From NCBI GenBank assembly GCA_038213805.1, contig JBBQSO010000079.1, forward strand, positions 1-25,263: DNA of 25,263 bases. Reading direction: 5' to 3'. The stretch is from Planctomycetota bacterium. Lineage in GTDB: Bacteria; Planctomycetota; UBA11346. The number at the start of each line of letters is the position of its first letter. The first letter of the stretch is position 1. The position numbers were made by a program, and so were the translations under genes. Shown here piece after piece: positions 1 through 25,263 of this stretch. The notes under the pieces were generated by a model that saw only the letters and a program-made list of their open reading frames with translations, was not told the DNA's origin and did not search any database.

Positions 1-303
1 CTCAACCGCCAGAAGATCGCCGCCCTCGCCGGACTGGCGCCCTACGACCGCGCTTCGGGAACCCACGATGGGCGACGCGCAATCTACGGCGGCAGGAAGC
101 GCCTGCGACGTGCGCTCTACCTCGCTGCCCTCACCGCAACACGGGGCAGCAAGTGGCTCAAGCCAATCTATGAAAGACTCAAAAATGCCGGCAAGAGCCC
201 AAAGGTCGCACTCATAGCCTGCGCACGCAAGCTCCTCGTGCGGCTCAATGGCCTGGCTGCAAACCTGCTCCATCCACCCCAAACACTGCCTCAGGAGGCT
301 TGA
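1..303 (+). CDS. IS110-family transposase/recombinase, C-terminal (Tnp) part; 5'-truncated by the window edge
   Basis: Absent from the ORF track because it has no start. Frame +1 reads LNRQKIAALAGLAPYDRASGTHDGRRAIYGGRKRLRRALYLAAL...YERLKNAGKSPKVALIACARKLL...EA*, with TGA at 301-303. This fits the IS110/IS116/IS902 C-terminal domain (GLAP...SG catalytic-Ser motif, GG R..LR..LY.AA, GK..KVAL.A.ARKL). Codon usage (aaa, ata, aga) is less GC-skewed than in host genes. Confidence 0.95.
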   Translation, partial: LNRQKIAALAGLAPYDRASGTHDGRRAIYGGRKRLRRALYLAALTATRGSKWLKPIYERLKNAGKSPKVALIACARKLLVRLNGLAANLLHPPQTLPQEA

Positions 304-305
304 CT
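300..305 (+). promoter_or_regulatory. Outward-facing -35 hexamer TTGACT in the IS110 right end
   Basis: Near-consensus -35, 13 nt before the CT core. IS621-type elements carry the -35 in the right end and complete the promoter on circularisation. Confidence 0.65.
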
Positions 306-360
306 AACAACACAGTCACTCCTGTTTTATCCGTGATTCCCTCTCCAGCGGAGCGCACCA

Positions 361-10913: not shown

Positions 10914-13900
10914 ATGACCGATCGCCAACCAGCCGCCCATCGCCGCATCCCGTGGGCCCTCCTCGCCCTGCTCCTCGCCACCAACGGGCGCGCGACAGCG
11001 GCCGACGCGCCGGACTTCACCAGTGAGGTGCGGCCCATCCTCGCCAACCACTGCTTCAAGTGCCACGGCCCCGACGAGGTGGCGCGCAAGGGCAAGTTGC
11101 GCCTCGATCTGCGCGCCAGCGGCATCGCGCCGGCCAAGTCCGGCGAGATCGCCATTGTGCCCGGCAAGCCGCAAGCCAGCGAACTGGTCAAACGCATCCA
11201 CAGTACCGACGAGGACGAGGTCATGCCGCCGCCGGCGACCAAGAAGCCGCTCAGCGCGGCGGAGCAGGAAGTCCTGACACGTTGGATCGCAGCCGGCGCC
11301 GAGTACCGCCCGCACTGGGCCTTCGTGCCGCCCGTTCAGGCGCCGCTGCCCGCGGTGCAGCGCACGGATTGGGCGCGCAACCCGATCGACCGCTTCGTAC
11401 TCGCACGCCTTGAACACGCCGGCCTGCAACCGTCGCCGCCGGCCGAGCGGCTGGCGCTGGCGCGGCGTGCGTCGCTCGACCTGATCGGCCTGCCGCCGAC
11501 GCCGGAAGAGGCGGGCGCCTTCGCCGCCGACACCGCACCCGACGCCTATGACCGCTACGTCGACCATCTACTTGCCCAGCCGCAGTACGGCGAGCGCTGG
11601 GCGCGCAAATGGCTCGACCTCGCGCGTTACGCGGACACCAACGGCTTCGAGAAAGACCGCCCGCGCTCTCTGTGGCCGTGGCGCGACTGGGTGATCGGCG
11701 CGCTCAACGCCGATATGCCCTTCGACCGCTTCACCATCCTGCAGCTTGCCGGCGACCTGGTGCCGGGCGCCGGCCAGGACGGCCAGATCGCCACCGGCTT
11801 CAACCGCAACACCATGATCAACGAGGAGGGCGGCATCGATCCGCAGGAGTACCGCTTCTACGCCATGGTCGACCGCGTCGCGACCCTGGGCAAGACCTGG
11901 CTGGGCCTGACCACGGGCTGCGCGCAGTGCCACACCCACAAGTACGATCCGCTCACCCAGCGCGAGTACTACCAGCTGATGGCGTTCATGGACAATGCAG
12001 AGGAGCCGCTGTTGCACCTGCAACCTGCCGACATCGTGCAGCGCCGCGCCGCGGCCGATGCGCGCATCGCCACCCTGGTCGCGGCCCTGCCGGAGCAGTT
12101 CCCGGTCGACCGCGCCATCGCCTGGCTGCCCGACCAGGCGATGACCGTGACCGCGGTCAGCACCGAGAGCGGCGAGCGCGCGGAGCGCCAGCCGGACGGC
12201 ACCTGGCGGATGGCCGGACCGGCGGCCGAGCGCGATGTCTACACCATCGCCATCGACGTCGACGGCGCCTGCGACGCGGTGCGCCTTGAGGCGCTGCCGC
12301 GGCCCGACCAGCCGCGCGGCGGCCCGGGGCGCGCAGCGAGCGGCAACTTCGTGGTTAGCGCGCTGCGTGTCGAGGCCGGGCCGCGCGGCGGGGCACTCGC
12401 CCCGGTGAAGGTCGAGAGCGCCAGCGCGGATTTCTCGCAAACGGGCTACGCGGTCAGCGCAGCGCTGGCTGGCGATCCCAAGGGCGGCTGGGGCGTCGAC
12501 GGCAGCCCGCACATGGACGAGGCGCGCCGCGCCGAGTTCATCCTCAAGGATGGCATCGACCACGCCGGCGGCAGCCGCGTGGTGGTGCGCATCGAACAGC
12601 GTTACGGCGGCCAGCACACCCTTGGCCGCTTCCGCCTCACCCTCGGCCGGCGCGCGGGCGGCGACGAGTCGCCGGCGGGGCGGCGCGTCCTCGCGGAGCG
12701 CGCAGCGGCACAATGGGCCGAGCGCGAAAGCGCCAAGGCGGTACGCTGGACGGTGCTGCGGCCGACCACCATGACCGGCGGCGTCCCCGACCTTGACCTG
12801 CAGGGCGATGGCTCGGTGCTGGCGAGCGGCGACATGACCAAGAGCGACACCTACCACCTGGTGTTCCACCCCGCCGACCGCGCGGCGCTGCGCGGGGCCA
12901 CCGCGCTGCGCCTTGAGGTCATCCCCGATCCGCGTCTGCCTGGCGGCGGGCCCGGGCGGGTGTGGTACGAGGGCACGCCCGGCGACTTCGGCCTGAGCGA
13001 GCTGCGTGCCAGCGCCGACGGCGCGCCTCTGAACTTCGCGCGCGCCATGCAGTCCTTCGCCGCCGACGGCAAGGGCGCGGCCCAGGCCATCGATGGGCGG
13101 CCCGATTCCTTCTGGTCGGTCAGCGGCGGCGAGGGCCGCTACCAGACCGCGGTGTTCGTCTTTTCGCAGCCGCTCGGCGACCAGGCGGAACTCACCCTCG
13201 ACCTGCTCAACGAGCGCTACTTCGCCTGTGGTTTGGGGCGTTTCCGATTCTCGGTGACCAGCGCGCCCGCACCGACCGAAGCCAGCGCCCAGCCGCCGGA
13301 GGTGCAGGACGCCCTGCTGGTGGCCGTTGGCCAGCGCAGCGCAACCCAGCACGCGCTGCTGTACCAGCGCTGGCTGGAGACCGCGCCGGAACTGGCCGGC
13401 GCGCGCGCGCCGATCGATCACGAGCGCGCCCAGCTGGCCGGCGGCGCGACCACCCTGGTCATGCAGGAGCGCAGCGCGCACCCGCGCGCGACCTTCATGC
13501 ACCACCGCGGCGAATGGCTGCAGCCGACCGAACGCGTCAGCGCCGGCATGCCGGCCTTTCTGCCGGCGCTGCCCGCGGGTGCGCCTCGCGACCGCCTCGC
13601 CCTGGCGCGCTGGTTGGTCGACCGCGGCAACCCGCTGACCGCGCGCGTCACCGTCAACCGCCAGTGGGCGGCGTTCTTCGGCCGCGGCCTGGTGCGCTCC
13701 GTCGACGATTTCGGCTACCAGGGCGACAGCCCGACCGACCCTGCGCTGCTCGACTGGCTGGCAGTGGAGTTCATGGAGCGCGGCTGGTCGCTGAAGGCGC
13801 TGCACCGCCTGATCGTCACCAGCGCCACCTATCAGCAGGCTTCGCGCATCCCGCCCACGCTGCTGGCACGCGATCCCGCCAACCTGCTGCTGGCGCGCGC

Positions 13901-14519
13901 GCCGCGCGTGCGTCTGGAAGCCGAAGCCATTCGCGACAGCGTGCTGCGCGCTGCCGGCCTGCTCAGCGCCAAGGTCGGCGGCCCGAGCGTGTTCCCGCCG
14001 CAGCCGGCGAGCATCAGCCAGGAAGGCGCCTACGGCGCGCTGGCGTGGAACACCAGCGCGGGCGAGGACCGCTACCGCCGCGGCCTGTACACCTTCGCCA
14101 AGCGCACCGCGCCCTACGCGCTGGCCAGCACCTTCGACGCACCGAGCGGCGAAGTGTGCATCGCCCAGCGCGACGTCTCGAACTCGCCGCTGCAGGCCCT
14201 GGCCATGCTCAACGACCCGGTATTCGTCGAGGCGGCGCAGGCGCTCGGCAAGGTGCTCGCGGCCAGGCCGGGTACCCCCGCCGAGCGCGTCGACGTGCTC
14301 TTCCGGCGCTGCCTGACCCGCCCGCCGGCCGCGGACGAGGCCGCGCTGGCGCTGCGCTTCCTCAACGACCTGCGCGGGCGCATCGAGCGCCACGAGGTCG
14401 ATGCCGGGGCGCTATGCGGTGAGAAGAGCGGCGAAGCGGCTGCGCTCGCCGAGCGCGCGCTGTGGACGGCGCTGGCGCGCAGCATCCTCAACCTCGATGA
14501 AGCCATCACCAAGGGCTGA
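10914..14519 (+). CDS. Planctomycete cytochrome c / DUF1549 / DUF1553 (PSD1) domain protein
   Basis: Signal peptide; F..EVRPILANHCFKCHG heme motif; HWAF.PP, NPIDRF, YGERWARKWLDLARYADT, CAQCHTHKYDP; NPLTARV.VNR.W, RLEAEAIRD, PLQAL.MLN. Confidence 0.93.
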   Translation: MTDRQPAAHRRIPWALLALLLATNGRATAADAPDFTSEVRPILANHCFKCHGPDEVARKGKLRLDLRASGIAPAKSGEIAIVPGKPQASELVKRIHSTDEDEVMPPPATKKPLSAAEQEVLTRWIAAGAEYRPHWAFVPPVQAPLPAVQRTDWARNPIDRFVLARLEHAGLQPSPPAERLALARRASLDLIGLPPTPEEAGAFAADTAPDAYDRYVDHLLAQPQYGERWARKWLDLARYADTNGFEKDRPRSLWPWRDWVIGALNADMPFDRFTILQLAGDLVPGAGQDGQIATGFNRNTMINEEGGIDPQEYRFYAMVDRVATLGKTWLGLTTGCAQCHTHKYDPLTQREYYQLMAFMDNAEEPLLHLQPADIVQRRAAADARIATLVAALPEQFPVDRAIAWLPDQAMTVTAVSTESGERAERQPDGTWRMAGPAAERDVYTIAIDVDGACDAVRLEALPRPDQPRGGPGRAASGNFVVSALRVEAGPRGGALAPVKVESASADFSQTGYAVSAALAGDPKGGWGVDGSPHMDEARRAEFILKDGIDHAGGSRVVVRIEQRYGGQHTLGRFRLTLGRRAGGDESPAGRRVLAERAAAQWAERESAKAVRWTVLRPTTMTGGVPDLDLQGDGSVLASGDMTKSDTYHLVFHPADRAALRGATALRLEVIPDPRLPGGGPGRVWYEGTPGDFGLSELRASADGAPLNFARAMQSFAADGKGAAQAIDGRPDSFWSVSGGEGRYQTAVFVFSQPLGDQAELTLDLLNERYFACGLGRFRFSVTSAPAPTEASAQPPEVQDALLVAVGQRSATQHALLYQRWLETAPELAGARAPIDHERAQLAGGATTLVMQERSAHPRATFMHHRGEWLQPTERVSAGMPAFLPALPAGAPRDRLALARWLVDRGNPLTARVTVNRQWAAFFGRGLVRSVDDFGYQGDSPTDPALLDWLAVEFMERGWSLKALHRLIVTSATYQQASRIPPTLLARDPANLLLARAPRVRLEAEAIRDSVLRAAGLLSAKVGGPSVFPPQPASISQEGAYGALAWNTSAGEDRYRRGLYTFAKRTAPYALASTFDAPSGEVCIAQRDVSNSPLQALAMLNDPVFVEAAQALGKVLAARPGTPAERVDVLFRRCLTRPPAADEAALALRFLNDLRGRIERHEVDAGALCGEKSGEAAALAERALWTALARSILNLDEAITKG

Positions 14520-14523
14520 TGTT

Positions 14524-15981
14524 ATGACCCATGCCCATGACCTGCGGATGATCCAAGCGGTCGACGCGCGCACGCGCCGGCGTTTCCTCGGCGACTGCGG
14601 CCTGGGGCTGGGGCGCATCGCCCTGGCCTCGCTGCTCACCGGTGGCGCGCTAGGACGCGCGCAGGCCGGCGAACCCGCGGCCGGCCCCCTCGCCCCGCAA
14701 ACGCCGCACTTCCCGGCGAAAGCCAAGCGCGTCATCCAGCTGTTCATGGGCGGCGCGCCCAGCCAGCTCGACCTCTTCGACCACAAGCCGGAGCTGGCCA
14801 AGCTCGAGGGCAAGCCGCTGCCACCGTCGGTGATCGCCGGGCAGCGCTATGCCTTCATCCGCCCCGACGCCGCGGTGATGGGACCGCGTTTCCCGTTTGC
14901 AAAGCATGGGCAGAGCGGGGCCGAGCTCGCCGACAAGCTGCCGCACCTCGCCGGCATCGCCGACGAGGTATGCTTCATCAAGTCGCTGCACACCGACCAG
15001 TTCAACCACGGCCCTGCGCAGGTGCTGATGAACACCGGCTTCTCGCAGCCGGGGCGGCCGTGCCTGGGCTCGTGGGCGCTCTATGGCCTGGGCTGCGCGA
15101 CCCAGGAACTGCCGGGCTTTGTGGTGATGTCGACCGGCGCTGGCGTCAGCGGGGGTTCGGCCAACTGGTCGAGCGGCTTCATGCCCACGCTCTACACCGG
15201 CTGCCGTTTCCGCAACCAGGGCGACCCGATCCTCGACACCTCCAACCCGGCCGGCGTCGACGCCGCGCTGCAGCGCTCATCGCTCGATCTCACCGGCGCG
15301 CTCAACCGCCGCGCCTTGAATGAAGTCGGCGACCCTGAGATCGCCACGCGCCTGGCCGGTTACGAGCTCGCCTTCCGCCTGCAGACGTCGGCGCCAGAAC
15401 TGATGGACCTCGCCAGCGAGGGCAAGGAGACCCTCGACCTCTATGGCTGCGATCCCGCCAAGCCGTCATTCGCGCGCGCCTGCCTGCTGGCGCGGCGCAT
15501 GGTCGAGCGCGGCGTGCGCTTCGTGCAGATCTTCCACGAGGGCTGGGACGCGCACAGCGACGTCACCGGCAACCACACCAAGAACTGCCAGGAGACCGAC
15601 CAGGGCGCCGCCGCGCTGGTCGCCGACCTCAAGCGCCGCGGCCTGCTCGAAGACACCCTGGTGATCTGGGGCGGCGAGTTCGGGCGCACGCCGATGGTCG
15701 AAAGCAACGCCGCCCTCGGCCGCAGCCAGGGCCGCGACCACCACCCGAGCGCCTTCACCATGTGGCTGGCAGGTGGCGGGGTGAAACGCGGACTGACCTA
15801 CGGCGCCACCGACGAGCTCGGCTTCCACGTGGTCGAGAACCCGGTGCACGTCCACGATCTGCAGGCGACGCTGCTGCACCTGCTTGGCTTCGACCACGAA
15901 AGGCTCACGTACCGTTTCGCTGGGCGCGATTTCAGACTGACCGACGTCGATGGGAAGGTGGTCGCGGGGGTACTGGCTTAG
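14524..15981 (+). CDS. DUF1501 domain protein (sulfatase-like fold, Tat signal)
   Basis: TRRRFL Tat motif, AKRVIQLFMGGAPSQLDLFD.KP, WDAH, WGGEFGRTP, GRDHHP, VHDLQATLLHLLG. Typical partner of PSD1 genes. Confidence 0.93.
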   Translation: MTHAHDLRMIQAVDARTRRRFLGDCGLGLGRIALASLLTGGALGRAQAGEPAAGPLAPQTPHFPAKAKRVIQLFMGGAPSQLDLFDHKPELAKLEGKPLPPSVIAGQRYAFIRPDAAVMGPRFPFAKHGQSGAELADKLPHLAGIADEVCFIKSLHTDQFNHGPAQVLMNTGFSQPGRPCLGSWALYGLGCATQELPGFVVMSTGAGVSGGSANWSSGFMPTLYTGCRFRNQGDPILDTSNPAGVDAALQRSSLDLTGALNRRALNEVGDPEIATRLAGYELAFRLQTSAPELMDLASEGKETLDLYGCDPAKPSFARACLLARRMVERGVRFVQIFHEGWDAHSDVTGNHTKNCQETDQGAAALVADLKRRGLLEDTLVIWGGEFGRTPMVESNAALGRSQGRDHHPSAFTMWLAGGGVKRGLTYGATDELGFHVVENPVHVHDLQATLLHLLGFDHERLTYRFAGRDFRLTDVDGKVVAGVLA

Positions 15982-25044: not shown

Positions 25045-25218
25045 ACGGATAAAACGGGAGACGCGGAGACGCGGAGGGAAGAGGAGGAGAGGTGAGGGGC
25101 AGGTCGCTTGGACGCGGGACGACGCTGAGTCCCTCACATCCGACGTCATCGCGAAGCATCGCGAAAAAATGTCCTCCAGGCTGGTCCATCCTCTTCCGAC
25201 CTCCGCGTCTCCGCGTCT
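25045..25218. repeat. REP-like inverted repeat built on the ACGCGGAG / CTCCGCGT octamer
   Basis: Perfect 19-bp arms AGACGCGGAGACGCGGAGG (25059-25077) and CCTCCGCGTCTCCGCGTCT (25200-25218), with inner extension GGAAGAGGA/TCCTCTTCC. The right arm stops abruptly at CT 25217-25218. Confidence 0.9.
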
Positions 25219-25263
25219 TGTAAGTTCTCTTCACCCACCCGCGAGGCGAAGTGGCAGCCTGGG
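25217..25263 (+). mobile_element. Probable left end of an IS110 copy (core CT, -10 box, start of bridge RNA); truncated by the window edge
   Basis: The repeat arm is interrupted at CT and followed by TG-TAAGTT, which sits 17 nt from the right-end TTGACT if the two ends are joined. A small hairpin follows. Confidence 0.65.
25233..25263 (+). ncRNA. Putative 5' start of an IS110 bridge RNA (partial)
   Basis: A at 25233 lies 7 nt after TAAGTT. Hairpin CCAC-c-CGC-gag-GCG-aa-GTGG at 25235-25254. The guide loops would lie beyond the window. Confidence 0.4.

Follow-up and report, generated by a model that had tools for sequence, protein, structure and literature searches.

An IS110-group insertion sequence with a predicted bridge RNA and a predicted junction promoter, inserted in a REP-like repeat of a Planctomycetota genome

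The window analysed here, 25,263 nucleotides long, is an entire contig (G000:C79) of a Planctomycetota genome assembly. Pfam families were found in 8 of its 25 long open reading frames, the remaining 17 being mostly overlapping frames; they comprise methionine aminopeptidase, SMC, a TPR protein, a PSCyt1/PSCyt2/PSD1 protein adjoining a DUF1501 protein, a prolyl oligopeptidase-like protein, an FAA hydrolase and a HemN-like radical SAM enzyme. The PSCyt1/PSCyt2/PSD1 (DUF1549/DUF1553) protein is 1201 aa long and lies, with the DUF1501 protein directly after it, at positions 10914–15981; the Pfam label for its first domain is 'Planctomycete cytochrome C'.

At each end of the contig a host repeat meets a mobile element (Table 1). 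The window opens within the 3' end of an IS110-type recombinase gene, of which it holds the last 100 residues and the stop codon, a fragment that by itself matches PF02371, the IS116/IS110/IS902 transposase domain. The right end (RE) of the element, ...TTGACTAACAACACAGTCA-CT, lies at 300–320 and is laid out as TTGACT-AACAACACAGTCA-CT, with the final CT at 319–320; the TGA stop codon of the recombinase sits inside TTGACT, and 17 further bases lead to the end of the RE. At the other extremity the left end (LE) reads CT followed by TGTAAGTT at 25217–25226, and the contig stops 45 nt into it. The final 64 bases of the window are ...CCTCCGCGTCTCCGCGT-CT-TGTAAGTTCTCTTCACCCACCCGCGAGGCGAAGTGGCAGCCTGGG, in which the CT is followed by TG-TAAGTT-CTCTTC-A at 25219–25233, as an earlier note on this DNA had read it.

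Table 1. Features of the element and of its target repeat at the two ends of the window.
Feature	Positions	Strand	Remarks
Recombinase gene, 3' part	1..303	+	Residues 217–316 of 316; stop 301–303; Ser235-Gly236; PF02371 3.1e-11
Predicted -35 half, TTGACT	300..305	+	Overlaps stop codon; TTGAC/TTGAA at same place in relatives
Left donor ACAGTCA + core CT = element right end	312..320	+	C79/C81 similarity ends at 320; left donor guide 8/8
Host flank CCTGTTTTATCCGT, right half of REP-like target arm	321..334	+	First 5 nt = right target
REP-like pair, left arm	25045..25088	.	Minus strand = empty near-target TCCGCGTCTCCCGT, 13/14
REP-like pair, right arm split by insertion	25189..25218	+	Left target TCCGCGT 25210–25216; core CT 25217–25218
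LE, first 45 nt	25219..25263	+	Right donor TGTAAG 25219–25224; predicted -10 TAAGTT 25221–25226
Predicted start; first strand of 5' RNA domain	near 25233; from 25234	+	Fold of full LE

The LE tip occurs on three contigs of the genome (the end of C79, C138 and the end of C35) and the RE tip on two (the starts of C79 and C81), and copy-to-copy similarity ends at CT in all five junctions, three LE and two RE. The note had taken the window end for the left end that matches the IS110 element at position 1, and this is borne out by C138, a near-complete copy (locus L005), which runs from its own repeat flank through the same LE and the gene into window 1–278, to 42 nt short of the RE end. The part of the element outside the window, L005 1518–2784, corresponds to G000:C138:7959–9225. 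C138 is identical to window 25219–25263 at 44 of 45 bases of the LE and to window 1–278 at 277 of 278, and element copies differ by one base in the 45, 85 and 278 nt compared. As assembled, the element measures 1307 nt plus the CT core, with an LE of 341 nt, a gene of 316 codons and an RE that extends 17 nt beyond the stop codon.

Because the interior was assembled just once, on C138, while the tips lie on several contigs, the copy number must be at least three. The contig of the IS body has a depth of 38.8 and 45.3 in two metagenome runs, against 7.6–10 for the C138 flank, depth not being equivalent to copy number. Three more short metagenome contigs link a repeat arm to the LE tip. The element copies account for the assembly breaks at these places.

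Given its gene content (smc, map, hemN-like), the contig is most likely a 25-kb chromosomal segment between two direct element copies and not a small circle. We also considered a 26.5-kb circle closed by one IS copy, which we judged unlikely with smc, map and hemN-like genes aboard; the support for it, that 321–334 completes the palindrome at the far end (13/14), was discounted because repeat arms are alike everywhere. The direct copies (window 1–320 and 25219–25263) bracket 25 kb with smc, map and the hemN-like gene, a stretch that would be a substrate for IS-mediated deletion or amplification.

A DEDD RuvC-like ORF joining the C-terminus at 1–303 had been expected beyond the contig end, and C138 carries it. 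The gene starts at L005 1859 and ends at window 300. Profile and PDB searches used the 308 residues, of 316, that are available from C138: these match PF01548 (DEDD_Tnp_IS110) at 7.9e-26, with 91 bits against a cut-off of 29, and PF02371 at 3.4e-14. When all PDB chains were searched, only two sequences matched, the ISCro4 transposase (9t56, 2e-37) and the IS621 transposase (8wt6, 2.2e-34), both alignments spanning query residues 6–296. D11/E54/D96/D99 align with IS621 D11/E60/D102/D105, and S235-G236 lies four residues past a conserved Pro, like S241-G242 of IS621 and also as in ISCro4; HMMER set a 2-residue gap before the Ser-Gly motif, and the Ser-to-Ser match requires moving this gap. With the roles of the DEDD and Ser residues taken from the description of IS621 (PMC11208158), the ORF is, as judged from its sequence, intact with all catalytic residues. 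No second PF01548 gene was found in the genome by profile search. Elements of the IS110 group have a long LE and a short RE, and their LE RNA has a stem-loop at its 5' end plus two others that contain internal loops (Durrant 2024 PMC11208160). Here too the LE is long and the RE short, long terminal inverted repeats are absent and CT is present once per junction. The element is a canonical IS110-group insertion sequence and a previously undescribed member of the family.

The host DNA at the insertions is repetitive. An inverted repeat in the window, with 30-nt arms at 25059–25088 and 25189–25218 that are 87% complementary, ends exactly at the T of the CT at 25217–25218, where the note had seen the right arm break. 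The left arm extends outward to 25045–25058, and the complement of this extension is found behind the other IS end, at window 321–334 (13/14), and not behind 25218; the same continuation as 321–334 is present in unoccupied repeat copies. A 20-mer of the host repeat, CTCCGCGNCTCCGCGNCTCC, has 111 occurrences in the genome at two mismatches or fewer, and there are 44 convergent repeat pairs, 75–193 nt apart, with unrelated interiors. The 14 bases contacted by the guides described below, TCCGCGTCTCCTGT, occur unoccupied at 10 perfect, 52 one-mismatch and 65 two-mismatch sites in the genome. One-mismatch empty sites mostly have C or G replacing the T beside the core, and the left arm of the window palindrome is one such site. 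The target of the element is one arm of a multi-copy REP-like repeat, in which the same position has been hit repeatedly. The arms of the host repeat span ∼45 nt around a tandem 8-mer (CTCCGCGN twice), as at G000:C21:47888–48040 and C31:15994–16130, and with its arms conserved but its interiors variable the repeat does not resemble a simple REP doublet or a MITE.

One junction speaks against this account. The C35 copy (L006, G000:C35:49746–49839) lies in a non-repeat site, GCGTCCCCCT-CT, with 5 of the 7 left-target bases. The right flank of this insertion was not found in the assembly. It is possible that C35 represents an off-target or half-match insertion.

Beyond the LE tip the note had expected a non-coding stretch with two guide loops, and C138 supplies it: an LE of 341 nt (L005 1518–1858) with two stem-loops that contain internal loops. 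The left target guide (LTG), UCCGCGUC at L005 1728–1735, equals TCCGCGT plus the C of the left flank (8/8), in line with the target guide expected in the note. The distal hairpin of the target loop, GAUCGC-UCGC-GCGAUC, separates it from the right target guide (RTG), ACAGGAG at L005 1756–1762, which is the reverse complement of CT+CCTGT at window 319–325 (7/7); together they specify the target TCCGCGT-CT-CCTGT. In the second loop the left donor guide (LDG), ACAGUCAC at L005 1799–1806, equals ACAGTCA plus the C of the RE (8/8) and is followed by a hairpin, and the right donor guide (RDG) is the word CUUCUGCAAG at L005 1835–1844, ending GCAAG. The donor guides thus correspond to ACAGTCA-CT-TGTAAG at the joined ends, and the donor ACAGTCA-CT-TGTAA proposed in the note finds both its guides in the C138 LE. 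CTTGT of the joint is the partner of the last five RDG bases, one pair being a G.T wobble: the 'TACAA-like' right donor guide that had been foreseen is present, but as UGCAAG, the G in place of A giving the wobble. By a pairing of our own, the first three bases of the RDG can pair with AAG if two bases bulge, which resembles the discontinuous right-donor pairing described for IS621 (Durrant 2024 PMC11208160). The IS621 donor string given in the note, ACAGTAT-CT-TGTAT, has no occurrence in the main text of Durrant 2024 (PMC11208160).

With order and spacing as expected, LTG, RTG and LDG together match at 23 of 23 positions; the best score among 1000 shuffled LEs was 19. In the IS621 scheme each loop's 5' side has the sense of the top strand and the 3' side is its reverse complement, and all four guide pairings include the core (Durrant 2024 PMC11208160). 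The guides here obey the published strand rule; the second core base is unmatched in both left guides, which have A and C in place of T.

In the predicted fold of L005 1712–1858 the target loop and the donor loop each consist of a stem, an internal loop and a hairpin. The target loop has basal stems at 1712–1719/1772–1779 and 1722–1726/1766–1770 and a distal hairpin at 1736–1755 (L005, MFE fold), and the basal stem of the donor loop, UCCC/GGGA, is predicted to take in the GGGAG ribosome-binding site of the recombinase gene. The RNA of the full LE folds at -193 kcal/mol (z -8.5). A search of L005 1300–2000 against Rfam 15 gave 9 matches at E ≤ 10, all far under the gathering score and none IS110-related; since no bridge-RNA model was matched in the Rfam copy used, this null says nothing against the RNA. 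As part of an explanation that we hold to be very probable as a whole, the LE is predicted to encode a bridge RNA with target-binding and donor-binding loops.

We then considered how these features fare in relatives. One genome per species was scanned and the best 80 of 175 relative-encoding stretches were kept, the most similar relatives in this species-representative scan having 45–49% protein identity and coming from many phyla. The element ends among them, read from within-genome copy sets, have the form AACACAGT[TC][AG]-CT-TGTA[AT][GC]TT throughout. Motif searches placed both ends in 31 of the 80; 49 loci lacked one or both motifs and went unscored. In the 31 loci the RTG matched at 7/7 in 19, at 6/7 in 10 and at 5/7 in 2, and the LDG at 8/8 in 28. 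At one locus, L049 (CAVWTH010000008.1, ∼1351), the recombinase ORF stops after 150 codons in the frame in which the match starts, indicating either a broken copy or a frame shift in the translation used here.

For covariation we used one copy per lineage from nine lineages, eight of relatives and our own. Their targets are wholly different, for example AAGCGG-CT-TACGA, TCAACT-CT-GAACA and TGAACA-CT-GACCC. The cognate LTG and RTG score 12–15 of 15 (15 in our own element), as against a mean of 10.4 and a maximum of 13 in the 72 non-cognate pairings, the single 13 being between two sister lineages, and the cognate pairing was the best in 9/9 rows. Because the targets are unrelated between lineages, the agreement of guide and flank reflects covariation and not shared ancestry of one site. 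In folds computed with the guides constrained to be unpaired, a target loop of basal stem, internal loop and one distal hairpin was predicted in 8/9 lineages, and the same fold of the donor loop in 5/9, two of the other four having a misplaced RDG anchor. In a 12-sequence alignment, 4 of the 10 pairs that make up the donor-loop stems have changed in a compensatory way. MAFFT and RNAalifold applied to the LEs of relatives, which are 194–262 nt long as against 341 nt in our own element, recovered partial structure only, of 10 and 8 pairs. The left-guide mismatch at the second core base and the RDG wobble are also present in multi-copy relatives.

A protein search of 40 related genomes gave a match in 8. 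The best match within the genus is a C-terminal fragment with 54–55% identity, and the best of all is in G013, from another genus of the same family, with 65–69% aa identity over fragments. Ends, RTG, LDG and loop stems in G013 agree with those of our own element. Its insertion repeat, related to ours, is TCCCGNN-CT-CCTGT, and the looser pattern TCCCGNNNNCCTGT has 119 matches compared with 8 for a control pattern; the G013 LTG differs from our own where the two repeats differ (CCGCG versus CCCG). At its insertion loci (L102, G013:C197, 381–692 on the minus strand; L105, G013:C29, 1480–1682) this LTG matches only 5/8 at both LE flanks, with the three core-adjacent bases unpaired, and because of this core-adjacent LTG pairing seems to be dispensable in G013. 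A contig of metagenome run X3 (L005 1795–2098) carries a diverged copy of our own element, which differs at 14 letters and has lost 3 nt in the hairpin of the donor loop; its right donor guide has a G-to-T change, as does that of G013.

The sole unusual feature of the element is its 5' RNA domain, ∼100–150 nt longer than in relatives: the LTG lies 210 nt from the LE tip, as against 54–64 nt in seven lineages and 106–107 nt in two. What the note took for a hairpin after 25233 is, in the predicted fold, the 5' strand of a more extensive domain, truncated by the contig end. The extra 5' part precedes the target loop and is predicted to comprise two long hairpins and a three-way junction, with the helix GCCAUG/CAUGGU enclosing the second hairpin and the target loop. 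The domain has no second copy in the genome. G013 also has a long 5' domain, and in its two hairpins three pairs are changed on both sides (A-U to G-C, C-G to U-A and C-G to G-C); this two-sequence comparison is suggestive of a domain conserved as structure. That the extra ∼195-nt structured domain is a functional add-on and not mere filler is a tentative idea, which we rather doubt. If it were true, the domain might act as a stabiliser or a second protein-binding platform, or as a processing/attenuation module governing how much bridge RNA there is relative to recombinase mRNA. The LE also contains a 12-bp GC hairpin (L005 1682–1711; G000:C138:8123–8152), terminator-like in having T6 after it on the minus strand. 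We rejected a role for it as a conserved minus-strand terminator of outward or antisense transcripts: G013 keeps the hairpin without the T run, and there is no minus-strand promoter-like site downstream.

When RE and LE are fused at their shared CT, TTGACT is followed by a spacer of 17 nt and TAAGTT (counted by hand and by script), exactly as the note had proposed. The -35 agrees with the consensus at 5/6 positions and the -10 at only 3/6, so that the promoter falls below the 9/12 demanded by a generic promoter scanner; the promoter call therefore rests on conservation and not on strength of consensus. A predicted split promoter at the RE–LE joint, with the -35 in the RE and the -10 in the LE, was found in 9/9 lineages, our own and the eight of relatives. 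The -35-like hexamers are TTGACT in four lineages, TTGAAA in three and TTGACC and TTGCTT in one each, with 5/6 consensus positions in 8/9; the spacer is 17 nt in seven lineages and 16 nt in two; and the -10-like hexamers, TATCTT in four, TATGTT in three and TAAGTT in two, have the form TA[AT][GC]TT in 9/9. The TGA within TTGA is a stop codon in 5/9 lineages, and part of the -35 conservation may be due to coding; in L018, however, TTGACT persists although the stop codon is at another place.

The circle of IS621 rebuilds a junction promoter, and small-RNA reads begin behind it in IS621 and five orthologues (Durrant 2024 PMC11208160). We take the life cycle of the present element from IS621, for which the picture is itself still being revised, a 2026 preprint arguing for single-strand excision. 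The junction promoter and a start near 25233 are in this sense predictions. None of the sequencing runs listed as containing the element is an RNA run. The RE–LE joint has no exact 22-mer match in the assembly, and none was seen among the Logan contigs listed for three metagenome runs, in a comparison whose reference ended 42 nt before the end of the RE and with contigs that drop rare forms.

The bridge RNA could instead be made mainly from the integrated copy, by host read-through or from a promoter internal to the LE, with the junction -35 and -10 a by-product of the conservation of donor sequence and stop codon. The weak -10 and the double use of TTGA as stop codon would fit such a scheme, as would the ∼195 nt between the predicted start and the target-binding loop, which leave space for another start, and integrated IS621 loci do express bridge RNA, if weakly (Hiraizumi 2026 PMC13626964). 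We nevertheless think it unlikely: in the integrated copy the host repeat bases GACCTC occupy the -35 position, no other promoter-like site was found on either strand of L005 1400–2784, a mere by-product would hardly explain the TTGACT of L018, and the reads from IS621 and its orthologues argue for the junction.

The element ends, the gene with its catalytic residues, the guide matches, the conservation of guides and of the split promoter sequence and the repeated insertion are all observed, and we conclude that the window very probably ends in the LE of an IS110-group element with a bridge RNA and a putative junction promoter. Transcription, its start site, the circle and recombination activity would follow by analogy with IS621. 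By that homology, excision would join the RE to the LE at the CT core, so that TTGACT from the RE would come to lie 17 nt upstream of the LE's TAAGTT, in a promoter that exists only in the excised form. This promoter would drive the bridge RNA and, probably, the recombinase. The target loop of the RNA would pair with the target in the repeat and the donor loop with the joined ends of the element itself, and the complex of recombinase and RNA would then insert the circle at the CT of another copy of the repeat.

It might be argued that the copies are inactive relics, the guide matches recording past activity. Neither left guide matches the second core base, the RDG requires a G.T wobble, and no RE–LE joint was seen in the assembly or among the metagenome contigs listed; but core mismatch and wobble are shared with multi-copy relatives, the unbroken ORF lacks none of the catalytic residues, the copies scarcely differ (one difference in 45, 85 and 278 nt) and the depth of the IS contig exceeds that of its flank in two metagenome runs, with the proviso on depth given above. 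We regard the relic reading as improbable. That the guide-like words of the LE are captured pieces of a host repeat that is abundant (111 arms in the genome), as the shared sense of LTG and repeat might hint, is scarcely credible, since the RTG reads as the reverse complement and follows 28 nt downstream, on the far side of a hairpin, exactly as in relatives with unrelated targets, and the donor guides match the element's own ends and not the repeat.

With an element that very probably uses a bridge RNA and has a predicted junction promoter, the locus offers a worked example of how contig ends by themselves can reveal a bridge recombinase's target, donor and guides and its predicted junction promoter. 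A natural system whose 14-bp target is GC-rich is thereby added, from a lineage with under 50% identity to any relative in the species-representative genomes searched; the known IS110 mechanism is left unchanged.

The closest parallel is IS621 of Escherichia coli (PMC11208160, PMC11208158). The two share a DEDD RuvC-like domain and a Tnp domain with Ser-Gly (E 2e-34 to 8wt6_A, over residues 6–296 of the 308 tested), a CT core, a long LE and a short RE, an RNA (here predicted) in which 5' structure is followed by target loop and donor loop, and insertion into repeated extragenic palindromes; the promoter split over the RE–LE joint of IS621 has a predicted counterpart here. Of the two loops that of the donor is the better conserved, as has been described for the second loop of bridge RNAs (Durrant 2024 PMC11208160). 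They differ in the target, the natural one of IS621 being ATCAGGCCTAC as against TCCGCGT-CT-CCTGT here; in the length of the RNA, 177 nt as against an LE of 341 nt and a predicted RNA of ∼325 nt; in the 5' structure, a single stem-loop as against a three-way junction and two hairpins; and in the left guides, which here do not match the T of the core. By sequence the best relative of solved structure is the ISCro4 transposase (PDB 9t56, E 2e-37), a comparison made by protein only. The relatives analysed here (L016–L095 and G013) have in common with our element the end pattern AACACAGT..-CT-TGTA..TT, the layout of the loops and the predicted split promoter. In its choice of site the element recalls ISPpu9 and ISPpu10 of Pseudomonas putida, described as multi-copy IS110-family elements all inserted in one repeated intergenic palindrome (PMC12288879, 10.64898/2026.03.19.712850); the ISPpu10 target adjoins a GC-rich stem-loop (10.64898/2026.03.19.712850), and the target here likewise lies within a long inverted repeat, the two being likened by description.
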